Counted from the first letter of the stretch, positions 33,640 through 55,012 are shown. The stretch is DNA of 64,000 nt from Nitrospirales bacterium (GCA_963422365.1 OY729426.1:576001-640000), one strand, 5' to 3'. Translations and numbers: made by a program. Notes: generated by a model not told the origin, from the sequence alone.

Positions 33640-33715
33640 TGGTGGAGCTGAGCGGGATCGAACCGCCGACCCCCTGGTTGCAAACCAGGCGCTCTCCCAT
33701 CTGAGCTACAGCCCC
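33640..33715 (-). tRNA. tRNA-Ala(TGC)
   Basis: GGGGCTGTAGCTCAG...TTTGCAA...TTCGA..CCACCA. Confidence 0.96.
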
Positions 33716-33824
33716 CTCATACCATGACCGGATAAAAATCAAGATGGACCCCCTCATCCTTTCTGCTGAACCGTTCCTCCAACCAGATTCCAAGATAAAA
33801 CGATTCAACTGGCCTTCATTCAGA

Positions 33825-33901
<77 letters not shown>

Positions 33902-38160: not shown

Positions 38161-39297
38161 ATGAGTTTTTGGCAGCACCTTTCACGTCCCATCATCGGGC
38201 TAGCTCCTATGGACGGCGTCACCGATATTGCGTTCCGCCACATCATCGCCACCTATGGCCGGCCGGACGTGATCTTTACCGAATTTACCAACGTCCATGA
38301 TATTTGTCAGGGGCGAGGCATGGGCTGGGATCCGTTACGGTATATCGACAATCAACGCCCGATCGTTGCCCAGCTTTACGGCAAACATCCTCATGTATTT
38401 TACCAGGCTGCCCATGTGGTGAGTGAACTCGGATTTGACGGACTGGATATTAACATGGGGTGCCCGTCCAAAAACGTGGCTTCGTCCGGGTGTGGCGCAG
38501 GGCTCATCAAAACGCCGGAACTGGCACTCGACATCATGGCGGCGACCCAACGCGGGCTTCACGATTGGGCCAATGGACAAACCCTGGCCAAAGCCGGGCT
38601 CAAACCCAGCATTGTCGAAAAGGTACGCATGGTGCGTGCCACGCAGCAACATCACGCCACACCCCGCTCCGCCCTTCCTCTTTCAGTGAAAACGCGCCTG
38701 GGGTATGACTCCGTCATTATCAAGGAATGGAGCGCCTGTCTCGCGCAAGGCCAACCGGAAGTGATTTCCATCCATGGTCGAACCTTGCAACAACTGTATC
38801 GGGGCGATGCGGATTGGGAAGCGATTACCGAGGCCGCCTCTCAGATTCACCAACAGGGCATCCTCGTGTTAGGCAACGGCGACATCGGCTCTTTGAACGA
38901 ATCCATTGCTCGCATCCACGCCAGCAGAGTGGACGGCATTCTCATCGGCCGTGCGGCCCTAGGAAACCCGTGGATCTTTCACGGTAAAGCCTTGATCCGC
39001 GAGGCCGTACTGGCGCGCGCCCGGCATCCGGTCTCCGAACCGATGGTCTCTCGACAAGACCGGTTCGACATGATGCTGCAGCACGCACATGCGTTTGAAC
39101 GGTATCATGACGCGCCCCGTTTTCCGCGCATGCGCAAACATCTGGGTTGGTATTGCAGCGGCTTTCCGCATGCCGCCTCCCTGCGTGCCCATATGGTCAA
39201 AACCAACAACGCCCAAGACGTTGAACGACTGCTCGATGAGTATGTCTCCCGACACGTTTCACCTGAAGTCGACGCGCTCACCGCTGCATCGACGTAA
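38161..39297 (+). CDS. tRNA-dihydrouridine synthase
   Basis: LAPMDGVTD, DINMGCP, SVKTRLG, IHGRT, GNGDI, IGRA. Confidence 0.93.
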   Translation: MSFWQHLSRPIIGLAPMDGVTDIAFRHIIATYGRPDVIFTEFTNVHDICQGRGMGWDPLRYIDNQRPIVAQLYGKHPHVFYQAAHVVSELGFDGLDINMGCPSKNVASSGCGAGLIKTPELALDIMAATQRGLHDWANGQTLAKAGLKPSIVEKVRMVRATQQHHATPRSALPLSVKTRLGYDSVIIKEWSACLAQGQPEVISIHGRTLQQLYRGDADWEAITEAASQIHQQGILVLGNGDIGSLNESIARIHASRVDGILIGRAALGNPWIFHGKALIREAVLARARHPVSEPMVSRQDRFDMMLQHAHAFERYHDAPRFPRMRKHLGWYCSGFPHAASLRAHMVKTNNAQDVERLLDEYVSRHVSPEVDALTAAST

Positions 39298-39320
39298 CCC
39301 GCTGCACCCCACGAGAACCC

Positions 39321-39950
39321 GTGTCCATCATCCTGGCTTCCACCTCTCCGCGCCGCCGCGAATTACTGGCCTTGCTCGGCATTGCGTTTGACATCATGCC
39401 TCCTACGGCCGAGGAAGTCCCATCCCCCGATCTTTCGCCTCCCGACCAGGCAAAACAATTTGCGCTGGATAAGGCGCTCTCCATTGCACACCACTATCCG
39501 GATGATCTGGTGTTAGGCAGCGACACGGTGATTGACATCGACGGCACACTGTTGGGTAAACCTCAAGATCTCAACCAAGCGGAAACCATGTTGCGGCAGA
39601 TCCGAGGGCGTGCACATCAGGTGCATACAGGCCTCGCGCTGATTCACCACGTGACAATGCAATTGGTGGCGTTGGTCGAAACCGCCCATGTCTGGATGAC
39701 ACCGTGTCACGACGAGGAACTCCGCGGCTACCTCAATACAGAAGAAAGTCTGGGAAAGGCCGGAGCCTATTCCATTCAAGGCGAAGGCGCGCAGCTTATT
39801 GAAAAGATCGAAGGAGATTATCCAACCATTGTCGGGCTACCCTTGTGGCAAACCGCTAAACTGCTGGAGCAACAGGGAGTCGTGCTCCCGAAGTCTGTTG
39901 AAGAGATCTACCGACTGAAGCCGTACGCGAATTGGAAAGAATTTGCGTAA
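39321..39950 (+). CDS. maf: Maf family nucleoside triphosphate pyrophosphatase
   Basis: ILASTSPRRRELL, GSDT, LGKP, KAGAY.IQG, VGLP. Confidence 0.95.
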   Translation: MSIILASTSPRRRELLALLGIAFDIMPPTAEEVPSPDLSPPDQAKQFALDKALSIAHHYPDDLVLGSDTVIDIDGTLLGKPQDLNQAETMLRQIRGRAHQVHTGLALIHHVTMQLVALVETAHVWMTPCHDEELRGYLNTEESLGKAGAYSIQGEGAQLIEKIEGDYPTIVGLPLWQTAKLLEQQGVVLPKSVEEIYRLKPYANWKEFA

Positions 39951-40097
39951 AGTATTTGTGAACATCGTGATTGATCGGAGTCTCTCTGCCCGCCGTTTAT
40001 TTGAGAAGTGGTCCCAGTCTGATTCCTTGGGCCCATTTTTAACTGTACAAACCATACAAAATATTGTTGCTTGACCAGTGAATTGAAAAGCGCGACG

Positions 40098-40113
40098 ATC
40101 TTACCAGTAAGAT
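40098..40113. promoter_or_regulatory. Palindromic operator (ATCTTAC-CA-GTAAGAT) upstream of AbrB-PIN TA
   Basis: Perfect inverted repeat ~20 bp before the antitoxin start; autoregulatory role inferred. Confidence 0.6.
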
Positions 40114-40134
40114 TTTGACGAGGAGGATACCCAC

Positions 40135-40386
40135 ATGGCAGAACTGACAACAACGAAGATGTCCTCGAAGGGACAGGTTGTCATTCCTGAAGAAATTCGA
40201 AAATGCCTGGGTCTTGAGGCCGGAACTCAATTTGTGGCGGCGGCGGATAAGGATACGGTCATCATGAAAGCCATCTCGCCACCCTCAATGGACGAATTCG
40301 ACACTCTGAAAGCAGCCGCGAGAAAGGCAGGATTGAAGCAGGCCGACATCCAGTCCATGACCTCGGAAGTACGTTCAGGGAAATGA
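40135..40386 (+). CDS. AbrB/MazE/SpoVT family antitoxin
   Basis: TTKMSSKGQVVIPEEIR..LGL..G; GGAGG RBS. Confidence 0.9.
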   Translation: MAELTTTKMSSKGQVVIPEEIRKCLGLEAGTQFVAAADKDTVIMKAISPPSMDEFDTLKAAARKAGLKQADIQSMTSEVRSGK

Positions 40387-40793
40387 AAATCGTCGTAGAT
40401 ACCAACGTTCTCATATCGGGTATCTTCTTCGACGGCCCGCCAGCACGAATCCTGAAAGCACGGTATAACGGCAAACTGCAATTTGTCGTATCACACGAGA
40501 TTCCAGAGGAATACTTTCAAGTTTGTGAACGACTTTCCTTTCGATATCCAGATATCGATATGACTCAAATTCTTATTCTGATGGTCCCAAACTGTCACCG
40601 TGTGGACACTCCGTCTTTGCCATTACCCCAGCCCTTTTCAAGCGATGCGGATGACGATACGTTCATTGCCTGCGCTTGAGCGAGCGACTCTAAAATTATC
40701 ATCAGCGGCGACAGTAATTTGCTTACAGTGTCTGGCTACGAAAATGTTCAGATCGTAACGCCTCGAGATTTCGTTGATAGATACATCGATTGA
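40383..40793 (+). pseudogene. PIN-domain (VapC-like) toxin with premature stop
   Basis: VVDTNVLISG..DADDDTFIACA*; reading continues past TGA 40677 as ASDSKIIISGDSNLL..IVTPRDF. Confidence 0.85.
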
Positions 40794-40818
40794 AACACTG
40801 CATTTAGCATCGAATGCA

Positions 40819-41573
40819 TTAGAGCTTCATCGTGAAATCCTTTAATGTGTCGAACTCCTTGAGGACCTTCCAAAAAAAATATTCATCCGATCCTTGACCA
40901 CGAACGTTTCGGTACAGTTCCTCTTCATCAAAGACATAATCTTGAGTCACTCGTGTAACCAGTCCCACACATTCAGGAATTCCTTTTCTTTCAGAATACC
41001 CAGGTACGTTTCATGCTCAATATTTACACCCTAAGCCTTAACATATTCGGTCTTTTCTTCGCCTATTTCTACATGAAGCTGATGGCCTCCATGGTTCCAC
41101 TGAATTGGAAGAGATCCATCTTCATCGCTGGAAACAAACGGGGTCTTCCAAGCCGTCCACTGTTTACGATAGAATAGAAAAAATACTCCAGGGTATTAGG
41201 GGCTTGACTCAAAATAAAAGGGCCTGCTAGCTTTTTTTGACCCTTTCCCATCCCAATTATCTTCACGCTCAGTTATTTTTTGAAGTTTTTCTTTCAATGC
41301 TTCCGCAAGGACGGGTAATTGTCTCGTTGACACCTTCTAGAAAACTGTTCCCGCTGTGAAAGCTTTCATCCTTCAGCCCTTGTTAAGTCTTCTTCATTGA
41401 GGATGACCCTCTCATGCGATCATGGAAACCCATCGTCCACGTCCTCAACGACACTGACCCCTCAGTTCTTTCCTGAGCTTGGTCCCCTAGCTTCTCTAGG
41501 ATGTCGGTGATGTTCCACTGGAAGATGTTTCGAATGTTTCTTTGGTTGAATGTTCTGCTTGTAACGATGGCAT
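40819..41573 (-). pseudogene. Degraded two-gene module (NWDG-motif protein plus coupled ELYRNV-motif protein)
   Basis: Minus strand: EDNWDGKGSK..PFVSSDEDGSLPIQWNHGGHQLHVEI..WDWLHE*, overlapping GTG start of TQDYVFDEEELYRNV; stops and frameshifts. Confidence 0.5.
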
Positions 41574-41597
41574 CTTCGACCTTTCGTATGTTTCAGT

Positions 41598-41899
41598 GGT
41601 ATAAAAAGACCAAGGACGTGCTGGTTGCCGAAGACCCGAGATCAGAAGAGCTACTGAAACCGATTTTGCGTGGACGGGACATTAAACGCTATCGGGCGGA
41701 ATGGGCGGGGCTGTGGGTGATTGATTCACACAATGGCTATGGCAATGTGCCGCCGGTCAATGTCGATGACTATATCGCCATCAAACAGCATCTGGATCAA
41801 TTCTACCCGCATTTGAAGAAGCGGCAGGATAAGGGAGTCACGCCGTACAACCTGCGTCATTGCGCTTATGACCAGGAGTTTCTACGCGATAAGCTCGTC
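41598..41899 (+). pseudogene. Internal fragment of Type IIG restriction-modification enzyme (region before TaqI_C-like specificity domain)
   Basis: EDPRSEELLKPILRGRDIKRY..W.GLW.I, KRQDKGVTPYNLR.CAY..EF. Confidence 0.85.
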
Positions 41900-41905
41900 T
41901 TATCG
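41887..41905. other. Putative tyrosine-recombinase crossover site CGATAA-GCTCGTC-TTATCG
   Basis: 6 bp inverted arms with a 7 bp asymmetric spacer at the RM/recombinase junction. Confidence 0.6.
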
Positions 41906-42019
41906 ACGATAAAGGCGGCGTTGTAGCCGGTTTTTATTCCGTAGTGGCAATATCTCGCAGTGTTCACAAGTGGCAGGGCTTACATTGCTTTCCTTTCAAT
42001 AACCTTAGGGAGAGCAGCT

Positions 42020-42993
42020 ATGACCCCATCCACAACCCCGGAATTGGCAGACAGTCCCCCCAGCGCGGCAGCGTTCACGGGCCGCTTGCAGGCCCGGCCA
42101 TGGCCGCCAACACTCGCAGGGCCTACACCGAAGGCTGGGCCATCTTCACAGACTGGTGCGGGCCCACGCCATGGCCCCCTCGCCGCCACGCCCGGCCACC
42201 TCGTTGATTTTTTCGTGGCGACCGCCTCCCGCCGCAGAGCGGGTACGGATACGCTGTTGGCGTTCGGCACCCTCGTTCTGATCCGCTGTGCCATCCGCCG
42301 TCGCTATGCAGACGCCAACCTGACCTCGCCCACACATCACCCCGACGTCACAGCCATCTTCAAGGGGCTCGCCCGCCTGCGGGGCGCCGCGTCAAGGCGA
42401 TTTGCGAGGACCAGTTGGCTGCGATGTTGGCGAAGTGCCCGGCCACGCCCATCGGCGCACGGGACGCGGCCGTGCTGGCGCTCGGCTTTGCCGCCGCCTT
42501 GTGCCGCTCGGAATTATGCGGGCTATCGATAGGGGATATTGAGCGGATTCCGACAGACGGGGGGGCCACCGGCATCATATTGCATATCCATCGCTCGAAG
42601 ACAGACCAGGCGGGGAAAGGCCAGCAGGTGGTCGTGCCCGCCGGGAAACGGATTCGCCCAGTCGCCGTCTTGGACCGCTGGGTCCGCGCCCATGGCCCTC
42701 ACGCCGGCCCCCTCTTTCAATCGTTGCGACGGGGCGGACGACTCACAGGCCACCCCCTCCACCACTCCGATATTCCGCGCTTGGTGAAACGGTATGCCGC
42801 GGCCATTGGGCTGGACCCTGCCGAGTTCTCCGCCCACTCCCTGCGGGCAGGCTTCGTCACCAGTGCGGCGGTCCATCACGCGCGGATGGACAAGATCATG
42901 GCCGTGACCCGCCACACCAACCCAGCTACAGTCATGAAATACATCCGCGATGCGGACGTGTTTACGGACCATGCAGGACAGGGGTTTTTGTGA
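42020..42993 (+). pseudogene. Cre-like tyrosine recombinase, frameshifted in N-terminal half
   Basis: NTRRAY..W..F..WC, RD.A.L.LGF..ALCRSEL, RSKTDQ.G.G, HSLRAGFVT, RH....VMKYIR; about 3 frameshifts between 42090 and 42400. Confidence 0.88.
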
Positions 42994-43039
42994 GAGTCGA
43001 TGGGCGGGGCGCTGTTCATTTTGGCACTGGACAGGATTG

Positions 43040-43138
43040 GACTACACCACCGGGCAGGAAGCCGAAATCGACCGGCTGGTGTATCAGCTATACAGGCTGA
43101 CGGAGGAAGAGATTAAACTTGTGGAGCAGATAAGATAG
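43040..43138 (+). repeat. Type IIG RM C-terminal tail, copy 1
   Basis: EAEIDRLVYQLYRLTEEEIKLVE. Confidence 0.85.
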
Positions 43139-43185
43139 GATAAGCCAAGAATATCAGCAAATTAAAGATGGAAATTATCCTTTTA

Positions 43186-43587
43186 CTACTTGTCCTCGCG
43201 GTTACCCGGGGTTTTGTATAAGTCATCAAAATGCCATAACTTTTCTATTAAATACTTAAGCAAAACCATCAAGTCACTACTAATAATACCTAGTGTAAAA
43301 CCCAGTCCGGCGCGTATCTGAAAACTTCCTGATGCTATTAGCCAAATTGCTGCTCCAATCAGGGCTATAATTCCAACGCAAAGCACAGACGATACAATTC
43401 TAGAAAACCAAAGTTGCCGAGCGAGAGACTTGAACCGGTAAGCCTCTATGGTATGGCTATGTTCCTGCTGTCGGCTTTCTCATCCTTGCTCATGCTCTTG
43501 CTTTGCAGTCCCCCTTGGAGCTTCCTGTTTCTGCTCGTCCAGTCGCAGGTCTTTCATGGGGACTCTGTGGTCCACTTCGTTGTTCAT
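43186..43587 (-). pseudogene. Two-TM membrane protein, putative Panacea-paired toxin (internal stop)
   Basis: ATG 43587 in frame with the hydrophobic ORF 43186-43386; TGA at 43480; directly downstream of Panacea gene. Confidence 0.55.
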
Positions 43588-43599
43588 GAGCTGTTTGAA

Positions 43600-44032
43600 C
43601 TGTTTCTTTCTTCCTGGCTTCATGTGTTGTTTGCATTTCGCCGGGCTGATGACCAAGGTGTGCCTGCTTCATGTGTCAAATTTGAAAGGTATAAACCGGA
43701 GTAAGGGGAATAGAGGTTCCAGCCCTGACCCAATAGCCAGTGGAAATCGGTATCTTGCTCGGGGACTACCTCATCATCTGCGGTTCCCTCTCCCAATTTT
43801 CTTTACTGATAGGCACGCTCCCAAATATTTTGTCAGCATGATCAATTTCTGGAAATACCGGACCATACTTCCACGCCTCCGGTTCCTTGTTGATTGCTGG
43901 TCTCTCAACATATGCCAAGTGCCATCCGTGAACGAGATAGACCAGCTTTTGTAACTTAAGCGGGCTAATCAGTATATTTTTCTCAAACGATAGCTGCAAG
44001 ACACTCTTGGCAACTTGCCGTGCAGGATACAT
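43600..44032 (-). pseudogene. Panacea/SocA (DUF4065) antitoxin, frameshifted
   Basis: LKLQKLVY..HGWHLA, EAWKYGPV, and in another frame LSNLTHEAGTPW. Confidence 0.85.
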
Positions 44033-44175
44033 TCTTGGTTGCCTCCCCAACCCTCGTTTGTGCTTTGGATGAAATCTTCTCTTACTTTAGTACAAACAGG
44101 TTATCTTGTCTCTCAACTCTACGATTTGACAGATGCACGTGGTGAGATAGGGTGAAACCAGGCGAGCATATACCG

Positions 44176-44308
44176 CAGTGCGGCGACTTATCATGCACGG
44201 ATGGACAAGATCATGACGGTAACCCGTCACACCAGCACCAATACGGTAATGAAATACATCCGCGATGCGGATGTTTTTACCGACCACGCAGGGCAGGGTT
44301 TTTTGTAA
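44176..44308 (+). repeat. Second copy of the tyrosine recombinase 3' end
   Basis: AATYHARMDKIMTVTRHTSTNTVMKYIRDADVFTDHAGQGFL*, homologous to 42861-42993. Confidence 0.92.
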
Positions 44309-44340
44309 CGCAGAGACCGGTCTTTCATATGTTTGTTACC

Positions 44341-44416
44341 CTGCAAACCGAAATCGACACGCCGGGTTTATCGGCTTTACGGACTGACAGACGCGGAAGT
44401 TGTAGCAGTGGAGGGA
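44341..44416 (+). repeat. Type IIG RM C-terminal tail, copy 2
   Basis: QTEID(fs)VYRLYGLTDAEVVAVEG. Confidence 0.75.
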
Positions 44417-44616
44417 TGCTGTAGTAGAAAGTGAATAAGTGCTTTTATTGAACAAAACGTTTACAGACTAAAACGATATGGCCGGGAGTTTTGACATTTT
44501 TTAGAAACGCATGATTGATGAGACTGTTGAATGATGAAGCAATGGACTGCGCTTGCATCAGTGATATATTTAGCCTGATTTTGAATGCCAAAATATCCAC
44601 ATAGAGGGGAAATGTT

Positions 44617-47085
44617 ATGGCAAATAAGAAATCCACATTTTTCGCAAAGCTATTCTATAGCTACTGCCACAAAGACGCTCAGTATAGAGATGCTATGGAA
44701 AACTCGCTTTCTTTTCTGAAGAGAGAAGGACTGCTCCAAGATTGGTCGGATAGAAGTATCCTGCCGGGACAGCAAATTTCACAAACAGTCAAGAAAGCAA
44801 TGAATGCGGCGGACATTATGGTGTTTCTGTTTAGTCCGGATTTTATTGCCTCCGATGCCTGCATGAAAGAATGGAAAGATGCAAAACGACTTGCTACTGA
44901 AGGAAAGCCGACCGTTCGTATTCCAATTATTCTCAAAGCATCTCCCTGGCAAGAACTGCTTGCCAATGATGACGTAAAAGCATTGCCGAATGACGGAAAG
45001 GCCGTCAATACGTTTCAAAGGCAAGATGAAGCATGGCAACAGGTATACGAAGGTATTAAATCTGTTATCAAACAATTAAGAAATAACTTCACCCCAAAGC
45101 AGGAGTTTCTTGATGAAATGAACAAGACCGATTTTCTATCGCAGCATTCTATTAAACTTCAAGATATTTTTATTTTCCTGCGTCTGTCTTGCTACGGGTC
45201 ACAAGAAAAAAATGGAGTGGTGCAGGAGGAAATCATCACATGCCAAGAACAACTTCTGGAAAAGAAACGTGTTCTTGTTCACGGAGAAGATATGAGTGGA
45301 AAAACAGCTCTTGGGCAGCATCTGTTTCTCTCTTTGGCTGAAGAACCCTCAACCCCGGTTTTGCATATTGACCTGAAAGACATTTCTGAAAAGCGTAAAG
45401 AGAAAGTGTTTATTGACACATATCGCCAGCAATTTAATGGCGATTATTCATTATGGAAGCGGCAAAATAATAAAACTCTCATCTTGGATAACCTGAACCG
45501 AACATCCAACATAGGATTCATCGGCTTCGCCAAAACCTTTTTTGACAGAATAATTATCATCCTGTCTTCCGATGCTTTCAGTTCATTTTTTAAAGATGAG
45601 ACACGATTGGCGGATTTTCACAAAATGAAAATTGAACCCCTGACACACGGACAACAGGAAAAGCTGATCAGAAAGCGATTGGCGTTATCGAACAGGGAAG
45701 AACCTGTTACAGATGGCTTTGTGGATCAAATTGAAAACCGCGTTAATTCCGTAATTATCTCCAACAAAATTGTGCCGAGGTATCCGTTTTTTGTGTTGTC
45801 CATTCTGCAAACTTACGAGGCATTCATGCCCGACAATCTATCCATAACTTCGTATGGACACTGCTATTATGTTTTGATTCTTGCCCATCTTATTAAGTCA
45901 GGAATCTCCCATAGTGACAGCGATATTAATACTTGTCTTAATTTCGCTGAACATCTGGCATCCGGGATTTATCATGATACTGACTTAAACTACGATGAAT
46001 TTATTAGTAAATATAAAGAAAGGTTTCATATCCAGGATTCAATCTTGAACAGGTTGAAAGACCCCGATCATGGCATTCTTACTGACTGCGGCCATTTTAA
46101 AACACCGTATATGCACTATTTTTTCCTGGGTCGATTTTTGTCCAGGAAAAGTGACACTTCGAAAAAAATAATTCGGGAGATGTGTGAAAACAGCCATGTA
46201 AACGCAAATTATCTGACGCTTTTATTCACGATTCATCACACGAATGACAATGAAATAGTGGACGATATTTTACTTAAAACCATGTGTACATTGGATAGCG
46301 TTCGACCGGCGGAACTGAATCGCGAAGAAACGAAAAGATTTGAGGAACTTATCGCTGCTCTCCGCGAAAATATATTATCCAGTAATAGTGTGGAGTCGGA
46401 AAGGGAGCAAGAAAGAGGTGCCCGAGACGTTGACGAGCAACAACTTGAAACCAGGGAGAATATGAAAGAAACAACCGATGATTACCCCGTCAACGACTGC
46501 TATCGCATTTTGAAGAACAATGCAATTATGGGACAGATTCTTCGGAATAAACACGGCAACATGGAAAAAACAAAGGTTGAAGAGATTATCGAGGTCATTG
46601 CGGCCGGCGGCCTGCGTCTTGTGAATCTTGTCCTGAAAGATGAGGAAGAGATAGCTGATTTGGCACGTTTAATTCATGAACAGCACCCTGATGACGACAT
46701 TCAGAAAATCAGAAAATTCGTTCAGTTTGTATCCTTCATTTGGACGATGACTAACATTGAAAAAATTGTCGGGTCTGTAAACGTTCCGGAAATCAGAGAA
46801 TCGGTCAATAATGTTGTATCTGGCAAGTCAACGCCTGCATATGACCTGATTGATTATTTCAGCCAGCTGGATAACTCAAATGAACTTACAAATGGAATAA
46901 AGGAGAAACTTGGTAGCTTGTTAAAGAAACATGATGACCCCTTTTTGCGAAGGGTGTTATCCATCAGAACGCAATTCTACATGAAGACACATCGCAGCAA
47001 AGCGCCTATTCAACAATCAATTTGTTCTTTGTTGGGCATTTCATATTCTCAGCAATACCGTCTTGGAAGAAATACGTCTTCGTGA
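44617..47085 (+). CDS. TIR domain + STAND/NACHT-like NTPase protein (putative antiphage NLR-like)
   Basis: N-terminal TIR_2 (FYSYCHKD, WSDR.I.PG, FIASDACMKE), Walker A GEDMSGKT, Walker B LILDN; intact 822 aa, AT-rich. Confidence 0.85.
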   Translation: MANKKSTFFAKLFYSYCHKDAQYRDAMENSLSFLKREGLLQDWSDRSILPGQQISQTVKKAMNAADIMVFLFSPDFIASDACMKEWKDAKRLATEGKPTVRIPIILKASPWQELLANDDVKALPNDGKAVNTFQRQDEAWQQVYEGIKSVIKQLRNNFTPKQEFLDEMNKTDFLSQHSIKLQDIFIFLRLSCYGSQEKNGVVQEEIITCQEQLLEKKRVLVHGEDMSGKTALGQHLFLSLAEEPSTPVLHIDLKDISEKRKEKVFIDTYRQQFNGDYSLWKRQNNKTLILDNLNRTSNIGFIGFAKTFFDRIIIILSSDAFSSFFKDETRLADFHKMKIEPLTHGQQEKLIRKRLALSNREEPVTDGFVDQIENRVNSVIISNKIVPRYPFFVLSILQTYEAFMPDNLSITSYGHCYYVLILAHLIKSGISHSDSDINTCLNFAEHLASGIYHDTDLNYDEFISKYKERFHIQDSILNRLKDPDHGILTDCGHFKTPYMHYFFLGRFLSRKSDTSKKIIREMCENSHVNANYLTLLFTIHHTNDNEIVDDILLKTMCTLDSVRPAELNREETKRFEELIAALRENILSSNSVESEREQERGARDVDEQQLETRENMKETTDDYPVNDCYRILKNNAIMGQILRNKHGNMEKTKVEEIIEVIAAGGLRLVNLVLKDEEEIADLARLIHEQHPDDDIQKIRKFVQFVSFIWTMTNIEKIVGSVNVPEIRESVNNVVSGKSTPAYDLIDYFSQLDNSNELTNGIKEKLGSLLKKHDDPFLRRVLSIRTQFYMKTHRSKAPIQQSICSLLGISYSQQYRLGRNTSS

Positions 47086-47160
47086 TTCTATCTGAGTTTG
47101 TATGCTCAATAGTCCAAAATGATTGGGATTCGTCACATCCCCTTCGATTCGGGCATGCTG

Positions 47161-47284
47161 GTTTTAGCTAAAACCGCCGACTTCCCCGCAGACACCCGCG
47201 ATCAGGAAGCTGACGATCGACCTCCTCGTCTATCAACTCTACGACCTGACTCCCGAAGGAATCTGAGCGGTGGAAGAGCGATAG
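47161..47284 (+). repeat. Type IIG RM C-terminal tail, copy 3
   Basis: AKTADFPADTRDQEA(fs)IDLLVYQLYDLTPEGI*AVEER*. Confidence 0.8.
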
Positions 47285-47373
47285 AACTGATAGAAGGGAG
47301 AATGGTTTGCTAGAGTTTTTGTTGAGAAACCTGCTATAGACTCTGTTGATGGCGTAAACGAAAGGATTCTTAG

Positions 47374-47896
47374 ATGCTGACAAATGACGAAGCGGAGCAT
47401 TTGATCACCCTGCCAAAGAAGCTGGTAGAAGGGGACAATGCCGTTGACTACAACGACTTTTCGTTGGAGCAACGGAAAGGCAAGATATACCTTGTATGCC
47501 GAACAGGAACCCGATTACTCCTTTCTCCCTGATATTCGACGGAGCAGTAAACGTGCGCTGAAAATCACGCTGCACTTTCAGGAAGACGACTCAAAAACGG
47601 GGCTGTTGCGGATCGACTACCATGAACAACACCGGAATCCCCTTGAGATAAAAAACAGCTCGCCCGATCGTTTCAAACCGTATGCCGGGAAGTGGTTTGA
47701 TTATCGCGAGCACCATCTCCATTATTACGTTGAGGGCTATACGCCCTTGGCGTGGGCCATTCCTTTGGTCAATGATGACTTTCCCCTGAAAACCATACGT
47801 GCTGTGAGTGACATTTTTTCTGTCATACAGGCATTTTCCAGGAGAATAAATCTGAAGACCGAATTCAGGGAGTATCAACATGAACTGGCTTTCTGA
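47374..47896 (+). pseudogene. DUF6978-like protein, frameshifted near N-terminus
   Basis: MLTNDEAEHLITLPK in one frame, then LLRIDY...H.NP, HLHYYVEGY..LAWAIPL in another; upstream of DUF1828/1829 gene. Confidence 0.6.
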
Positions 47897-48667
47897 ACAC
47901 GTTGATCACTATGACGATTGGCTCAAGGCCAAAACCCATATTCCGCCCTATGATGCAAGCGATTGGGGGCTCATTTCCACTCCCTTTCTAGGACGGTTTA
48001 ATGACACGCTGGAAATCTACGCGAAAAAGCACGGCGATGAGATCACACTCTCTGACGACGGCAAGACCCTCCACGACTTAGAACTCATGGGAGTTTTTTC
48101 TCTCGCTCCTCGTCTCGGAAGGAGATGCTGGAACGTATCCTCACCAATCATGTTGTGAGAGAAGAGGAAGGCGAGCTTGTGACACGAGCCAGGGAATCCG
48201 ATTTTCCCCAAGGGAAGCATAATTTGCTCCAGGCCATGTTAGAAATTAGCGAGTTTCATGTCCTTGCCAAGCATACCATTGCCAATGTTTTCAAAGAGGA
48301 CGTGAGAGCGTATCTTGACGAGCAAGAGATCGTCTATACGCCTCAATTCATTTGCAAAGGGGCCGTCGGGATTGAATTTACTTTTGACTTCCACGTGGCC
48401 TATCGGAAAAAGGAGATTGTGCTGAAGTAATTCAGCGGCATCAACAAGACTTCACTGTCAAGTTTTCTGTTTATGTGGAGGGATATTTGTGAATCCAGAA
48501 AACATTTGACAGGTAAAGAAGTATCGGGACTTGCCCTTATTAATGACGAAGACAAGAGTATTAATCCTGAGTATCTGGATGCCTTGAAGGCAGGCAGAGC
48601 GGATTACGTAAGATGGCAGGACAGATACGTGCCTGAAAATACAGCAAAATTCAAAGAAGCCGCATAA
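47880..48667 (+). pseudogene. DUF1828/DUF1829 protein, broken
   Basis: ISTPFL..FND.LEIY, LSDDG.TL, KHNLLQAM, F.EDV..YL, G..G..F.FDF, INDE; one frameshift plus TAA at 48428. Confidence 0.75.
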
Positions 48668-48870
48668 AAAACGCTTTGACGCAGCATTCTTTTTCCAGCA
48701 ATGGAGCGGCGTTCAGAAGCACCTCAACGGAAGGACCCTCGACCATCAACCCTACGATGACATGCCGGATCTTCAATTGTTATAGAAAGCCATGCGGATG
48801 GGTTGAGAGCCCTGATGATTGTTCAAATGCCCTTCGATCTGTCGAGATGGATGTCAGCCAAGGGCAGACA

Positions 48871-48931
48871 CCGGCGAGCCTATGCACTCTACAGCCTGAC
48901 GGACGAGGAAATCGCAACGGTAGAGGCGCGG
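48871..48931 (+). repeat. Type IIG RM C-terminal tail, copy 4
   Basis: RRAYALYSLTDEEIATVEAR. Confidence 0.72.
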
Positions 48932-48976
48932 GAGTGGTCACTTGGGCAAGAACGATTCACCGAATATGAGTTAGCC

Positions 48977-49255
48977 ATGATTCAATCATTTGCGGATAAG
49001 GACACGGAAGAACTTTTCGAGTTGGAACGCAACCACCGGTTTGCCGCTCTATCGCGAGTTGCGCTGCGAAAATTGATCCAGATGAATCAGGCCAGCGCCC
49101 TCAGTGACCTTGCCGTACCGCCAGTTAACCGTCTTGAAGCTCTTAGAGGTCGGCTTTCGGGCTTTCATCCCATCCGCATCAATGACCAATGGCGCCTTGT
49201 CTTCAGGTGGACGGATGCCGGACCTGAACAGGTTGCAATAGTCAATTATCATTGA
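48977..49255 (+). CDS. higB: HigB (RelE/ParE family) toxin
   Basis: MIQSFADKDTEELF, PP.NRLEALRG, IRINDQWRLVFRW. Confidence 0.9.
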   Translation: MIQSFADKDTEELFELERNHRFAALSRVALRKLIQMNQASALSDLAVPPVNRLEALRGRLSGFHPIRINDQWRLVFRWTDAGPEQVAIVNYH

Positions 49256-49280
49256 AAATGAACCCATGACGTTATAGGAT

Positions 49281-49586
49281 ATGAATATGAACGAGCCAAT
49301 CACACCCGGTGAGATTTTACTTGAGGAGTACCTCAAGCCCATGGGGATTTCGCAACATGCCGTGGCGCGCGCCATCGGAGTTGCCCTGCGAGCGATCAAC
49401 GAAATCGTGCATGGTCGGCGGTCGATTGCACCGGCCACGTGGATTCGCTTTGGCGCCTTCTTCGGTCAGTCAGACCAATTCTGGCACGGCATCCAGGTCG
49501 AGTGCGACTTTCGCAAGCTGGCCGGAGACAAGCACCGGCTTACCGACGGCATTCAACTAGCTGCGACGCTGGGGCAGGCGTCCTGA
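49281..49586 (+). CDS. higA: HigA antitoxin (XRE HTH)
   Basis: [36 protein letters not shown]. Confidence 0.9.
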
Positions 49587-49593
49587 GCATTCG

Positions 49594-49659
49594 AGGCCGC
49601 ATAAGAGGCGGCCCCTACACAGGCACTGGATTCCTGATGACACATACACAGGAATGACA
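49594..49659. repeat. Mosaic of two REP-like palindromes
   Basis: GGCCGCATAAGAGGCGGCCCCTAC followed by CTGGATTCCTG..CAGGAATGAC. Confidence 0.65.
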
Positions 49660-49867
49660 GAAGGGGAAAAGGGAGGGGAACCGGCGACACCAGAGCCCCC
49701 TGTTAGACGCAGGCACCTCTTCAACGGTACACCTTGTCTCGGCGAGCGACCCTCACCACTAGGACACGCAACACACCACCCTCGTGGTGGCAGATCATGC
49801 GGCAATTTCCAACGCGATAACGGCACAGCCCACCCAGTGGGCTGGTCAGTGCCGTGGCCCAGGTTCC

Positions 49868-49975
49868 GCGGGTCATCCAGGCCGTGCTCGATCATCTCAC
49901 GCAGGTAAAACGCCTTCGTACGCCCGGTCTGCGACGCCAGACAATCAAGCCGTTACTCGGTTTCGGGAATATCAC
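49868..49975 (-). pseudogene. RHH/RelB-like antitoxin fragment
   Basis: Minus strand RLDCLASQTGRTKAFYLREMIEHGLDD. Confidence 0.6.
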
Positions 49976-50127
49976 AAGTGCGAACTCGGCTGATACTCCC
50001 ATACGACGCCTCGACGATGCCGCCCTACAAATGCAATGGCATATGATGTGGCCGCGCCAAAAGAGAGAAGAAAGCGAGAGAAGATCCCGCAGATACAAAG
50101 ACGAATGAGACCTGTTCAACAAGAGGG

Positions 50128-50733
50128 TTACAAATACCGATGAGCGACGGCTTGACCCTGCTCATCCAACTCATACAACAACGGGGCACCCGTGGGAATA
50201 TTCAGTTCGAGCACGTCTTCTCGGGAGAGTCGGCCAAGGTGCATGACGAGGGCGCGCAAACTGTTCCCATGGGCCACCACTAACAGGGTCTCGCCTTTCT
50301 CCAGTCGCGGCCGGATCCGTTCTTGGTAATAGGGAACCACCCGTTCGGCGGTATCGTGTAAACTTTCTCCCCCAGGCGGACGCACGGCATAACTTCTCCG
50401 CCACAATTTCACCTGGTCCTCTCCATATTTTTCAATGGTTTCTGCTTTATTGAGCCCTTGTAATTCTCCATACTTGCGTTCATTCAAAGCCAGCGTTTTT
50501 TCAACCTGGAGTTGAGGTTGGCCAATGACCTCCAACACAATCTCCAGGGTTCTGATCGCCCGCGTCAATACTGAGGTAAACGCATGATCAAACCGAAAGT
50601 CCTCAACTTTCTTTCCTGCCTCTCGGGCTTCCTGCTCCCCTTTGGGGCTTAGGGGGACGTCCACCCATCCGGTAAATCGATTTTCAAGATTCCATTGTGA
50701 TTCACCATGGCGAATCAAGACAACCTGTTTCAT
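50128..50733 (-). CDS. gpmA: 2,3-bisphosphoglycerate-dependent phosphoglycerate mutase
   Basis: [37 protein letters not shown]. Confidence 0.96.
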
Positions 50734-50910
50734 GCTGCCTCCCCTGTCCGAACCCTTTTCTCACTCAAAGCCGCCTGTTTCTCTCCCCTTGCTTTGCTTG
50801 CTGACACACCGTACCATGCCAGCCACGTTCCAGAACCCTCACCTGAACCTGACCTCTCATCGTGTGGGCAGCATCAGAACCTGCATCGACACGTTTCTGA
50901 ATTGGCGCAG

Positions 50911-51741
50911 ATGGCTCAACCCGATCTCCCTCAACCCGAGGCCCAGTGGTGGATCATGCTGGCGCAACGCCTCAACATCAAAGACAAAGTCGAGCAGTTC
51001 TTTCACCATGCGACCACGCCCCACAATGTGCTGGGCCGCGTGGCGGAAGTCGATGGAGACATGCACTATATTTTGTTTGTCTTGGTCCGCCATTGGATCC
51101 CCATCGTCTTGCCCCCACCGGGACGTGAACGAATGTCCAAACATGATCCGGATTACTGGTTGGAATCGGCGAAAATTCTCGATGCCGCGGTGACGCGCTT
51201 ACGTGAACTAAAACCCCTGATCGACCTCCTGACCACGGCCAACCCCTTGGGCCCGAAGATGGCACCTTCCGCTTCCCCGATCGTCGAGGTGGAACTCGCC
51301 AACATGTTGCAAGACATTGCCAACGTCGCCGGCAGTTACGGCGGGCCTGACTATACGTCGATCATCAAAAGCTTCGACCCCATCCCCCTTCGACAAACGC
51401 AACCCTTTAAACACAACAAAAAACATAGCGCCGAGTTGTGGGTCGTGTTTCTGCTCCGCGAGCATTTTCGAACCCTCAGCATGGGAAAAGATCGATATTG
51501 GCCGCTTCTCACGGACGTGATTACCGCTGCCGGCATTCGTCAACCCAATGACCATGCGTTTACGGCGGGCGAACTCAAATCGTGGTGGACGAAGAATTGG
51601 CCTCGGACCTACACCATCATGTTGAAGGAAAAAAACGACGGCGGGCTGCCTACCGCCCATACGGCCTACCAAAGTGACTATGAATGGTTTCAATCATGGT
51701 TCACGTGGGAGATGTCACAATCGGCCACCCCTGATCGCTGA
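50911..51741 (+). CDS. Hypothetical protein
   Basis: Long ORF with host-like codon usage; start uncertain because the longer ORF overlaps gpmA. Confidence 0.65.
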   Translation: MAQPDLPQPEAQWWIMLAQRLNIKDKVEQFFHHATTPHNVLGRVAEVDGDMHYILFVLVRHWIPIVLPPPGRERMSKHDPDYWLESAKILDAAVTRLRELKPLIDLLTTANPLGPKMAPSASPIVEVELANMLQDIANVAGSYGGPDYTSIIKSFDPIPLRQTQPFKHNKKHSAELWVVFLLREHFRTLSMGKDRYWPLLTDVITAAGIRQPNDHAFTAGELKSWWTKNWPRTYTIMLKEKNDGGLPTAHTAYQSDYEWFQSWFTWEMSQSATPDR

Positions 51742-51842
51742 TTCCCTGCTCATCCACTCGCTCGCATTTCTGACGCCCAGCCCCTGCGATACGTCGCGAT
51801 CATCTGCCCTGACAAGGCTTGCGACGACCGAGAGAAATCCAG

Positions 51843-52520
51843 CTAGAATGTCCGTCGGCCCTCCATCTCTTCCTCATTAGGCAAAGGGAGATCTTCTTCG
51901 AAGGGTGGGTCACCGAGCCAGGCAAAAAAGACTACGATTTTCAGTAAAAGAGACACGGCCACCAACCAGGACACATAGGGTTGGATGCCCCCTTCATCCG
52001 CGAGCTTCAGCATGCGAGCCACGTGGTCAAGGCCGGCCCTGGTTTTCATCTTCAGCAACAGATCTTGTAAGTGCCGGTAATACACGTAATTGGCACTCAT
52101 ACTTGCGATGACCGACCACACGATGGGTACCGTGACGTCATTCGTTAAAAAGACGGAAACGATGGGTCCGATAAAATAGACAAACGCAAACAGGTACATT
52201 TTTCGATACAGAAACCAGAGAAAGGGTTCTACCAAAAATGGGGCCCAGTTCCACGTGAGAGCAAATCGAGGTCCTGGTATGGAATGAAATCGTTGAAACA
52301 TTCGTTGGTAATAGTCCCAAGCGGGTTTCCACGACCAGCCTCCCCTCAACGTAAAGTGGAGACATTTCCCCGGACCGACCAACGCCCGCCAATACGGCTC
52401 CTCATGATCCGTCTCGGGGGAAGCGGTAGTCGCCGCTTCCTGGGGAAACTCCTTCCCGCATCGCAGGCAAAACAGGGAATCATCGGGATTTTGTTGTTGG
52501 CAGGAATCGCAGGCTCTCAT
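51843..52520 (-). CDS. Zinc-ribbon + DUF2628-like membrane protein
   Basis: CDSC...FCLRCG, WNWAPF...W.LYRKMY, ANY.YY. Confidence 0.8.
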   Translation of the reverse strand: MRACDSCQQQNPDDSLFCLRCGKEFPQEAATTASPETDHEEPYWRALVGPGKCLHFTLRGGWSWKPAWDYYQRMFQRFHSIPGPRFALTWNWAPFLVEPFLWFLYRKMYLFAFVYFIGPIVSVFLTNDVTVPIVWSVIASMSANYVYYRHLQDLLLKMKTRAGLDHVARMLKLADEGGIQPYVSWLVAVSLLLKIVVFFAWLGDPPFEEDLPLPNEEEMEGRRTF

Positions 52521-52835: not shown

Positions 52836-54026
52836 ATGCTGAATAACCAGGAACTGGAGGATATACTCAAAAGCGGTGAAAGCGACTGCGTGGAATTTAC
52901 AGAATCTACCAGAGACCTGGATAAAATCCGGACAGCCATCTGCGCTTTTGCCAACGATCTCCCCAACCATAAGAAGCCAGGGTTTGCCTTCATCGGAATC
53001 AAGGATGACGGAAGTTGTGCCGATTTGACGATTGATGATGATCGGTTACAGACACTTGGTGGATTGCGAAGCGACGGCAAGATTCTTCCTTTTCCAACCA
53101 TGGAGGTTGTCAAACGAACCCTGAATGGTTGCGAAGTTGCCGTGATACAGGTGGAGCCTTCGGATAATCCACCGGTAAACGTCAATGGCCGGTGTTGGAT
53201 TCGGGTTGGGCCGCGACGCAGCCAAGCCACCGCCGAAGATGAACGACGCCTGACGGAGAAAAGGCGCTGGGGGAATCTGCCCTATGACATGCAAAAGGTG
53301 AGCAACGCGTCTATAGAAAATGACCTGGATATGCGGAAGTTCCGGAGTGAATACCTGCCCTTCGCCGTATCACCGGAAGTGCTGGAAGAGAATGACCGCA
53401 ACCCTGGAGAACAATTGCGGGCTCTACGCCTGACGGCGCAAGACGGGACACCGACCGTGACAGCTATTCTCATGTTGGGTAAAGACCCGCGCTATTGGTT
53501 TCCCGGCGCATACATCCAGTTTGTTCGCTATGAGGGCCGCGAGGTCACGGATGCCATTCTCGACCAAGCTGAGCTATCTGGCCCGCTACCTGACCAATTG
53601 CGCGAAATGGACCGCCTGCTAAAACGAAACATCTCTACCGCCCTGGACACCCACGGGGAAAAACATATCGAAGAGCCGGACTACCCGTTTCAGGCACTGC
53701 GCGAACTCGCCCGCAACGCGGTGATTCACAGGAACTACGAAAATTCCAATACTCCCGTACGACTCACGTGGTTTGCCGATAACGTGGAGATCAGCAACCC
53801 CGGCTCGGTGTATGGTTCAGTAACGCGCGAGAATTTCGGACAACGCGACGCCACGGCCTACCGCAATCCTACCGTTGCGGAAGCCATGAAAAATATGGGG
53901 TTTATGCAGCAGTTCGGCATCGGTATCGCTACGGCAAGGAAAGCACTGGAAGAAAACGGCAATCCGCCGCCTCAATTCACCATAGAAGAAACCTTTGTTT
54001 TCGTTACAGTCAAGAAACGACAATGA
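52836..54026 (+). CDS. Schlafen/AlbA_2 domain + HATPase_c_4 (RecG-C-like) protein
   Basis: ESDCVEF.E, ICAFAND, IGIKDDG, YP..ALREL..NAVIHR.Y, ISNPG, YRNP.VA. Confidence 0.85.
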   Translation: MLNNQELEDILKSGESDCVEFTESTRDLDKIRTAICAFANDLPNHKKPGFAFIGIKDDGSCADLTIDDDRLQTLGGLRSDGKILPFPTMEVVKRTLNGCEVAVIQVEPSDNPPVNVNGRCWIRVGPRRSQATAEDERRLTEKRRWGNLPYDMQKVSNASIENDLDMRKFRSEYLPFAVSPEVLEENDRNPGEQLRALRLTAQDGTPTVTAILMLGKDPRYWFPGAYIQFVRYEGREVTDAILDQAELSGPLPDQLREMDRLLKRNISTALDTHGEKHIEEPDYPFQALRELARNAVIHRNYENSNTPVRLTWFADNVEISNPGSVYGSVTRENFGQRDATAYRNPTVAEAMKNMGFMQQFGIGIATARKALEENGNPPPQFTIEETFVFVTVKKRQ

Positions 54027-55012
54027 AAACCATCGCGTTTTTCAACAACAAAGGCGGAGTGGGAAAAACCTCGCTTGTGTATCACCTCGCCTGGATGTTC
54101 GGAGAAACCGGGTACCGTATCATTGCCGTTGATCTGGACCCTCAGGCTAACCTGAGCGGAATGTTTCTTGATGAAACCAGACTGGAAGACCTTTGGCGAG
54201 ATGGAAACCCAAAAAAAACCATTAATGGAGATATTGCACCCCTGTTTGAAGGAGTGGGAGATATTTCAACAGAGCCTCGTATTGAGAAAGTCGGAGAGCG
54301 AATCGGTCTGTTAGTAGGAGATCTTGACCTTTCCAAATGCGAAGGCGATCTGTCGGAACAATGGCCGAAATGTCTGGATCGGGACAAACGGGCATTTCGC
54401 GTCATAACGGCTTTCGCGCGACTGATTGCCAGCGCCGGTGAAAAATTCCAGGCAGATTTGGCGCTGGTGGACATCGGTCCTAATCTCGGCGCCATTAACA
54501 GAGCCGCGCTGATAGCCAGCGAACACGTGGTCATACCGCTTGCGCCTGACCTGTTTTCATTACAGGGCTTGAGGAACGTGGGGCCGACTCTAAGAGATTG
54601 GGAGAAGGCATGGAAAAAGCGTGTTAAGGATAAACCGGAAGATTTGGCTATTGACCTCCCTACCGGCGATATGAAACCGCTCGGGTATATCGTCATGCGA
54701 CACTCCGCCAGATTGGACCGTCCGGTCAGATCATTCCAGAGATGGATTGAGAAGATACCCATGGCGTACCGGCAAGCGATTTTGGAGACAAAGGACCCTG
54801 GACCGACAGTTGATACTGACGAACACCTTCTGGCGCATCTGAAAGATTATCGATCTCTTATGCCGATGGCGCAGCAGGCCAACAAGCCCATGTTCATGTT
54901 GAAACCCGCCGATGGCGTTATCGGCTCACATCAACATGCCGTCGTGAGCTGCCACAAAGATTTCCGTAATCTCTCGGAAAAAATTATTGGCAAGCTGAAC
55001 CAGGAAACCTAG
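54023..55012 (+). CDS. ParA family ATPase (orphan)
   Basis: FNNKGGVGKT, DLDPQANL, DIGPNLGAINR, PDLFSLQG; ATGA overlap with upstream gene. Confidence 0.88.
   Translation: MKTIAFFNNKGGVGKTSLVYHLAWMFGETGYRIIAVDLDPQANLSGMFLDETRLEDLWRDGNPKKTINGDIAPLFEGVGDISTEPRIEKVGERIGLLVGDLDLSKCEGDLSEQWPKCLDRDKRAFRVITAFARLIASAGEKFQADLALVDIGPNLGAINRAALIASEHVVIPLAPDLFSLQGLRNVGPTLRDWEKAWKKRVKDKPEDLAIDLPTGDMKPLGYIVMRHSARLDRPVRSFQRWIEKIPMAYRQAILETKDPGPTVDTDEHLLAHLKDYRSLMPMAQQANKPMFMLKPADGVIGSHQHAVVSCHKDFRNLSEKIIGKLNQET

Follow-up and report, generated by a model that had tools for sequence, protein, structure and literature searches.

The interval between maf and gpmA in a Nitrospirales bacterium (genome of 2.5 Mb, labelled G000 here) carries a row of short repeats that resemble the extreme end of a restriction-modification (RM) gene of Type IIG (IIG) and are separated by defence and toxin-antitoxin (TA) genes. 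We analysed these repeats, called tails below, in a stretch of 64,000 nucleotides (nt), the window (GCA_963422365.1 OY729426.1:576001-640000), the segment studied being 41,598-49,593. An initial annotation had described four same-orientation tails of diverged sequence, each beside a different cargo (Panacea plus a membrane protein, TIR-STAND, DUF6978/DUF1828-1829, and HigBA). A protein profile was made from the last 30 residues of 119 Type IIG proteins homologous to the intact IIG of this genome and was used with a threshold of at least 7 bits; within the window it found four sites on the + strand (43055, 44360, 47216 and 48875). In the whole genome it gave nine matches, confined to two loci, with four in the window and five at the paralogous IIG locus L009 (G000:1750000-1770000), so that the tails are not scattered genome-wide. 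A nucleotide profile built on 20 live gene ends found the same four tails with E values, in order, of 2e-16, 3e-5, 5e-16 and 4e-6; outside the two loci there were two weak matches, one with E 0.031, just 3' of another Eco57I-type frame, and one with E 2. The reversed genome gave no match to the protein profile and the reversed loci none to the nucleotide profile, and chance repeats were ruled out as the source of the tails by these controls. The repeats are thus the extreme C-terminus of Eco57I/TaqI_C-type IIG proteins, as had been claimed, and a decayed fifth tail had been missed. Four of the five lie above threshold; tail 2 falls below it in the window and was recognized only by its twin in L032, a sequence titled Arenicellales, whose weakly scoring copy is 97% identical to it over 71 nt. 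The features of the interval are collected in Table 1; the cargo families named in the initial annotation were confirmed by Pfam.

Table 1. Features of the maf-gpmA interval of the window, in order of position
Feature	Position	Strand	Remarks
maf	39321..39950	+	left anchor of the variable interval; NCBIfam TIGR00172 over cut-off; syntenic in relatives
Conserved flank with 3' end of TIGR04255-family gene	40875..41603	-	gene cut off at ~41601
IIG specificity-region remnant (conserved block forming the invertron inverted repeat)	41598..41903	+	tblastn to L009 IIG residues 945-1052
Stub of start of inverted spare specificity copy	41900..41948	-	broken at conserved TCGATAA element
Cre/XerD-like tyrosine recombinase pseudogene	42020..42993	+	PF00589; 79-80% nt identity to intact L009 gene
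Tail 1	43042..43138	+	last ~28 codons of IIG gene; chimeric junction; profile matches
Cargo 1: SocA/Panacea antitoxin and membrane protein, frameshifted	43186..44035	-	PF13274
Tail 2	44099..44155	+	decayed IIG end; translation and L032 copy
Second recombinase copy, last 49 codons	44159..44308	+	residues 276-324, 78% amino acid identity
Tail 3	44344..44434	+	frameshifted; protein and nucleotide profile matches
TIR-NTPase, intact, 822 residues	44617..47085	+	TIR_2 and weak nSTAND3
Tail 4	47166..47290	+	frameshifted, longest (~113 nt of IIG end); profile matches
DUF6978 and DUF1828/1829 (PADLOC PDC-M24A/B), broken	47374..48667	+
DUF5131 gene 3' fragment, relic of eroded cargo unit	48651..48782	+	tblastn residues 196-234 of 238, 51%
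Tail 5	48866..48940	+	profile matches; precedes HigBA likewise in G045 and G044
HigB-HigA TA pair, intact	48976..49586	+	PF05015, HTH_3; TIGR02607 over cut-off
gpmA	50128..50733	-	right anchor; TIGR01258 over cut-off; syntenic

The 42-nt cores of the five window tails were pairwise alike at only 19-29 positions (45-69%), in agreement with the divergence noted earlier, and each tail was nearest to a different foreign allele; the nearest relatives of tail 4, at ~80%, were other alleles of the genus. No tail has a start codon of its own, and tails 3 and 4 are frameshifted. Contigs of four public sequencing runs from two studies, one of which may be the source sample, contained long pieces of the window with 0 differences; because of this agreement, assembly errors were rejected as the cause of the frameshifts. 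The orphan tails therefore appear to be silent or decaying gene ends. Tails could also multiply as local duplications of the locus's own gene end, by unequal crossing-over or gene conversion with later insertion of cargo, or could be kept as selected small translated peptides. The distant stacks L137, L148 and L138/139 do have tails nearly identical to their own live end, and the peptide motifs are conserved; however, the divergence of the window tails and their separate foreign relatives, the two frameshifts and the missing starts do not fit, and the conservation is accounted for by the tails' past as working C-termini. We consider this the least probable of the explanations weighed here.

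Comparison with L032 revealed how one tail was assembled. In L032 a helicase and a IIG gene are followed by ThsB-TIR, PDC-M50A and TIR genes, a tail, membrane protein and Panacea genes, a second tail, a recombinase 3' piece, a third tail, and DUF3644, TcmP and DUF5131 genes. Window positions 43055-44306 are 93% identical in nt to L032 8892-10148, L009 has other pieces in common with L032 at 92-99%, and L032-type sequence was found in the same sequencing runs as the window. The left 60 nt of window tail 1 agreed with L032 tail 3 at 50 of 60 positions and with L032 tail 1 at 11 of 60; for the 30 nt after the 42-nt core the relation was reversed, with 13 of 30 for L032 tail 3 and 29 of 30 for L032 tail 1. 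The core itself was identical at 38-42 of 42 positions among the five copies compared for tail 1. Since the two flanks derive from different junctions, the left from the post-recombinase junction and the right from the Panacea junction of L032, a crossover fell inside tail 1. L009:13501 holds the other half of that L032 junction, which is fused there, again within the tail, to another partner. DUF3644, which stands behind an orphan tail in L009 and L032, was right behind the tail that follows the IIG block in a high-depth contig of the runs, as judged from joints only. The helicase and the IIG 5' part were 92-95% identical between L032 464-6094, from a gammaproteobacterium, and L009 1-6926, and the IIG 3' halves differed from the NPPY motif onward. 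A contig joint of 44293 to 42979, found in two runs, was considered as a circle and rejected, as 23 of 269 letters in the contig are different and its order is that of the L032 type.

Tail matches were present in 25 of 37 other genomes of the genus, and units made of a tail end plus its cargo (FRG-TPR, ApeA, GNAT, Dcm-ATPase-Vsr, MazE/PIN, HigBA and Panacea) recurred there in varied order; in some genomes they follow the live gene immediately, in others an orphan tail precedes them. FRG-TPR, which has a tail end of its own, is next after IIG in G044 and G042, but in G043, G018 and G023 it comes after ApeA, GNAT or Dcm-ATPase-Vsr cargo and is preceded by an orphan tail. HigBA with the same tail relic follows FRG-TPR in G044 and G045 and DUF1828/DUF5131 remains in the window, and a 70% copy of cargo 1 follows an orphan tail at the same maf-gpmA locus of G023. 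The shared sequence begins 23-400 nt upstream of the tail end, mostly within the last 130 nt, at no fixed point, and tail remnants range from ~45 to more than 200 nt.

The interval left of gpmA varied among the six relatives compared, as had been predicted for the maf-gpmA locus: G023 and G048 have helicase-IIG plus cargo there, and G042 and G052 have no IIG. In G000 a block of PCP_red-Mrp-B-helicase-IIG is found outside the maf-gpmA interval, at 1745735-1765475, 1.14 Mb away and in circularly permuted order, and both its breakpoints touch IIG-derived DNA. This arrangement would fit excision and reinsertion of the block as a circle. The moved region (G000:1745735-1766543) also contains a 61-77 nt duplicated gene start at 1766467. 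Because the live helicase-IIG half was moved, the window stack was left without its live gene, and we take the window to be the old distal part of a stack.

For the wider survey loci were picked for having tail matches, so that the counts are not unbiased frequencies, and the Pfam scans took chosen open reading frames (104 plus 72 of 339, and 110 of 129), so that these scans could have overlooked an unrelated integrase close to some stacks. Matches to the tail profile were obtained for 88 of 201 genomes in the phylum, for 35 of 151 in the class to which L030 (titled Dehalococcoidia) belongs and for 17 of 250 in that of L032, where G583 was left unscored; many of the matches in these scans are natural ends of live genes. 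Stacks were found in other Nitrospirota, Chloroflexota and Gammaproteobacteria. In stacks without the recombinase described below, seven same-strand tails extend over 13 kb behind a IIG body in G124, four are found in G251 and three each in G116, G133, G200, G248 and, by profile scan only, the gammaproteobacterial G452. The cargo of the distant stacks, of which 20 selected loci were fetched, consists mostly of TA, HEPN/nucleotidyltransferase, Mrr, AlbA, AAA_13, DarTG-adjacent and unknown genes. The G124 stack (L134 3310-16551), with two Mrr_N genes, AlbA-RecG, genes like those for RNase HII and photolyase, and several others without annotation, is a promising source of defence candidates.

A IIG frame of at least 700 amino acids (aa) was present in 29 of the 71 loci examined, and 18 of these 29 had extra tails: 21 were downstream on the same strand, none was upstream, and six were in opposite orientation (five invertron spares and one inverted relic). 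The window locus itself lacks the live gene, which is present there in G023 and G048. Whole islands of IIG plus cargo might have piled up in tandem at a defence hotspot, the redundant IIG genes being eroded by deletion and their last codons kept because they hold the next gene's ribosome-binding site or promoter, so that the tails would be residues rather than anchors. Such a history agrees with remnants of 100-214 aa in L054, L066, L088 and L148, with two full tandem IIG genes in L149, with the richness of the window in deletions and pseudogenes, and with ATG frames of at least 80 aa that start no more than 30 nt from the tail end at 32 of 89 tails, a count made without a control. Erosion alone, however, yields neither a tail 1 with sides from different junctions nor a polarity in which the live gene always comes first. 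In addition, no window cargo starts at a tail, the Panacea unit being on the opposite strand and the others ~35-185 nt away, and there are no helicase or IIG 5' relics between the window tails. We regard this account as unlikely.

Orphan ends were not restricted to IIG. A genome-wide scan of G000, filtered against repeat proteins, found five other genes (hsdM, glnS, mnmA, an ABC permease and one unannotated) with a free same-strand copy of their 3' end downstream and none upstream; therefore the process that leaves orphan ends is not peculiar to IIG, although a stack was seen for IIG only. These ends lie at 306342, 368711, 736432, 846194 and 1413529, with Fic, TraT or unknown genes between. 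ComEC and DprA genes are present in the genome, as they are in 10 and 11, respectively, of 14 control genomes.

The initial annotation had placed the first two tails directly after the 3' end of a Cre-like recombinase and had proposed an integron-like system linked to that recombinase. Such ends do precede both tails, and one tail each in L009 and L032; however, the first is a pseudogene, with at least two frameshifts in its N-terminal part and Cys at the catalytic Arg, and the second consists of the last 49 codons only. In L009 the content is helicase, AlbA-RecG, ParA, an intact 1183-aa IIG, a spare copy of the IIG 3' part in inverted orientation, which perfect inverted repeats of 381 bp enclose, and a tyrosine recombinase of 324 aa that is intact and in which every aligned catalytic motif is present. 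This invertron occupies L009 4637-9995 (G000:1754636-1759994), and its spare copy is frameshifted after the repeat. The same tail-to-tail arrangement, with a recombinase of 51-54% aa identity, was found in L030, L031 (titled Gammaproteobacteria), L150 and L151, so that all five intact homologues lie beside an inverted spare specificity domain; a helicase is upstream of IIG in L009 and L031. At L030 1-6826 a long CRISPR-like repeat array with a period of ~61 nt reaches the start of a 5'-truncated IIG gene.

The window holds only fragments of such a switch: 41598-41948 is the wreck of a IIG switch broken at the invertron element, followed by the recombinase pseudogene. Positions 41601-41721 are 84% identical to both repeat arms of L009, and the stub of the spare copy scored 19.9 on the matrix for the inner invertron motif (random 95th percentile 8.2). 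The window pseudogene is likely a former invertase of the IIG switch. Contigs, in which both orientations of L009 were looked for, break at the 381-bp repeat; an inverted relic at 13504-13686, derived from the tail-to-tail junction, points to an earlier flip. A contig joint of 41601/41904 in one run is compatible with a IIG allele carrying a window-type repeat start and not necessarily with a flip in the window. Several synonymous positions are invariant in the ten repeat copies of the five loci, which come from different phyla, whereas eight IIG genes that lack the recombinase vary at them; this points to a recombinase site at the start of the invertron repeat. The candidate site is L009 7413-7470 with the matching repeats in L030, L031, L150 and L151, which start at the same codon.

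Some observations favour a reading in which the Cre-like recombinase used the tail as an attachment site to integrate and excise cassettes, with the intact L009 copy perhaps acting in trans: the recombinase ends before tails, the intact catalytic motifs of that copy, the coincidence in a single genome of this recombinase and the two longest stacks of the genus, and the folding of the tail 1 and tail 4 regions described below. However, the recombinase family was not found in the 37 other genus genomes, eight of whose loci still carry two or three same-strand tails, nor in 15 further multi-tail loci of other families and a second phylum. Among the 20 fetched distant loci it matched only two invertron loci, and the four homologues of other genomes had no orphan tail within ~7-12 kb downstream. 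Relatives of the recombinase in metagenome contigs (34 loci) included no close one, with full-length matches of 25-36%, and of the 23 loci in genome contigs, 20 were only distantly related. The window tails scored 0.5-7.0 and -0.6-6.6 on the two matrices for invertron sites, within the random range (95th percentiles 9.1 and 8.2), the true sites scoring at least 11.4 and 23.1. Integrons have an attC-like hairpin or a conserved site at each junction. When one strand was folded, no hairpin common to the window tails was found: three of five tails folded no better than shuffles, and tails 1 and 4, which did (z -2.9 and -2.0), had unlike folds. The low likeness of the tail cores and the varying junction positions also speak against a fixed site. 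We conclude that tail stacking is independent of this recombinase family, as far as genome comparison can establish it, and that an integron-like mechanism is very unlikely. Of the earlier expectation that intact loci would combine several tail-cargo units of varying content with a recombinase, only the variable units held.

These comparisons demonstrated, at the level of sequence, that the repeats are IIG ends of different alleles that lie only downstream of live genes, have crossovers inside them, and recur with their units in varied orders and species. We propose, with a probability of about three in four, that the five repeats are dead IIG 3' ends, each left when an incoming IIG end with its passengers displaced the older end and its cargo downstream by ordinary recombination. 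DNA carrying a IIG 3' part plus cargo would enter, recombine into the resident IIG gene and push the old end and its cargo downstream. The splice would be homologous or homology-anchored (RecA-type), either by integration of a circle or by homology-facilitated illegitimate recombination, both of which fit. Once two tails were present, tail-by-tail crossovers could excise, delete or re-dock units. Selection for a new specificity or new cargo would drive each event, and old cargo would be kept by TA addiction or benefit and would later decay. The Cre-like recombinase would have arrived inside one unit, together with a spare specificity domain, and then decayed; recombinase ends would abut tails because the invertase module was one such passenger. 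The chimeric tail 1, the permuted units, the polarity and the variable maf-gpmA content argue for the part of the earlier proposal that saw the IIG 3' end as a shared anchor for serial uptake of cargo, and the circular permutation of the PCP_red-Mrp-helicase-IIG block is a further point for displacement.

Several observations weigh against displacement by ordinary recombination. At tail 3 the similarity to L032 ends at the recombinase stop codon and not in the tail, so that the end of the recombinase, too, acted as an anchor or as the limit of a deletion. The IIG remnant is broken at 41601 and at 41903, in both cases at the conserved element of the invertron, and therefore the recombinase may have caused local damage there. 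Contigs, in which rare forms are lost, showed neither an excised circle nor a rearrangement of the window locus, and their two candidate joints trace to a 92-93% identical other organism and to a IIG allele. About one-third of the tail left edges cluster 85-100 nt before the end, which may reflect a real hotspot or only the sensitivity of the profile. In L077 an arm-type integrase is located 1 kb past the third tail, and in L153 there is a XerD-like gene at a distance of 1.4 kb from a single tail.

Arrays of displaced ends are known from other genes, and the likenesses and differences given here refer to the available parts of the papers cited. Like the rhs C-terminal displacement arrays (Jackson et al. 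2009, PMC2935791), the IIG stacks consist of a live gene and, behind it, remnants in direct repeat that lack a start, are partly frameshifted and have differing downstream DNA, and they share a low-GC trough, new units next to the live gene and exchange across taxa; homologous recombination with circular intermediates was proposed for rhs. Here, in contrast, the anchor is an RM gene end, the payload consists of separate defence or TA genes after the stop codon and not of a toxin tip, and the remnants are usually only 15-70 codons long. Direct-orientation orphans downstream, the same unit attached in one genome and displaced in another, and apparently silent or decaying orphans are common to both; a toxin gene with tip plus an immunity gene, as in strict rhs or contact-dependent inhibition loci, is not found. 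By this analogy the locus seems to work like rhs-type displacement without being a rhs locus. The effector-immunity displacement of type VI secretion systems (T6SS) in Vibrio (Kirchberger et al. 2017, PMC5361080) likewise gives an ordered stack, newest first, with no integrase shown; homology-facilitated illegitimate recombination was proposed and the arrays were likened to integrons, although the piece retained there is a functional immunity gene and here is a dead gene end with unrelated cargo.

Milman et al. (2023, PMC9881135) described programmed inversions for Type II RM homologues of C. jejuni Cj0031 that have a PLD-SNF helicase as neighbour. L009, L030, L031, L150 and L151 are of that class, with an Eco57I-type gene and an inverted spare 3' part; the parts available do not mention orphan tails or cargo stacks, and the window's own switch is destroyed. 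The exchange of variable C-terminal specificity regions of IIG between conserved blocks, and RM-linked insertion between repeats without a mobile element, were reported in 2010 (PMC2853133); these were single swaps or insertions, with no multi-tail cargo stacks in the parts available. Integrons and rAID-1 clusters (Ross et al., bioRxiv 10.1101/471110) share a tyrosine recombinase gene placed before an array of protective genes that is low in GC and has repeated sequences between its genes. There, however, the recombinase is conserved and system-defining and the genes are co-oriented, whereas here it is dead, absent from other stacks and tied to an invertible switch, no hairpin or site recurs at each junction, and one cargo unit, Panacea, is reversed. 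In their available parts Huang et al. (PMC7672463) treat Type I invertons only, and a review of anchor-bounded islands (PMC12707154) contains 0 occurrences of 'displace'. We found no description of IIG tail stacks in the literature covered, which left out most subscription papers and all supplements.

The stacks bear on how chromosomal defence islands that have no integrase acquire genes and change their order. The joints are visible here: a 30-codon tag marks the site, order and donor allele of each added unit, chimeric tail 1 is a crossover captured inside the tag, and the tail profile detects such stacks in at least three phyla. Because most annotated cargo is defence or TA, the unannotated genes between tails are candidate defence genes. 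The mechanism is likely, by analogy, the ordinary recombination already described for rhs and T6SS arrays, so that these stacks extend a known displacement principle to IIG gene ends rather than add new machinery. More tentatively, and with odds that we put somewhat below even, the last ~30 IIG codons might be a recombinase-free docking standard for defence cassettes across phyla, with circles of tail plus cargo released by tail-by-tail crossover and taken up by co-resident unrelated species at their own IIG ends, the spare target recognition domain and Cre-like invertase travelling as one such cassette. If so, tail order would read out the history of defence acquisition and mark candidate defence genes.

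The cargo of the window is intact only in part: the TIR-NTPase and HigBA are whole, and the Panacea, DUF6978/1828 and recombinase genes are broken. GC content is 38-46% over most of the cargo and up to 65% in the recombinase (genome 53%). Residues 142-808 of the TIR-NTPase matched the anti-phage DS-8 model NF053861 with 325 bits, below its cut-off of 790, the NTPase part resembling the NACHT part of DS-8; homologues at 47% follow hsdS at Type I loci in the relatives G044 and G004. Since DS-8, in the parts of its description available, combines a metallophosphatase effector with NACHT (PMC13092281), the window protein is likely a TIR-effector variant of DS-8. An Rfam scan of 39000-52000 gave no match, and no tRNA or tmRNA lies at the border, the only two tRNAs being at 33640-33901, so that by this feature it is not a tRNA-targeted island. 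The flank behind maf is 76-83% identical to G048, G052, G001 and G042 up to 41600-41604, its family being taken from the full gene of a relative. Two groups of genes flank the stack without a tail, a MazE-PIN pair with truncated PIN (40135-40679) and ParE-type fragments (49721-49971). Just 3' of higA, at 49595-49667, is a short GC-rich repeat with at least six more copies in the genome and others in relatives. At 52836-55012 an AlbA_2-RecG plus ParA pair is inserted before argD, and a paralogous pair precedes IIG in L009, L055 and L075.

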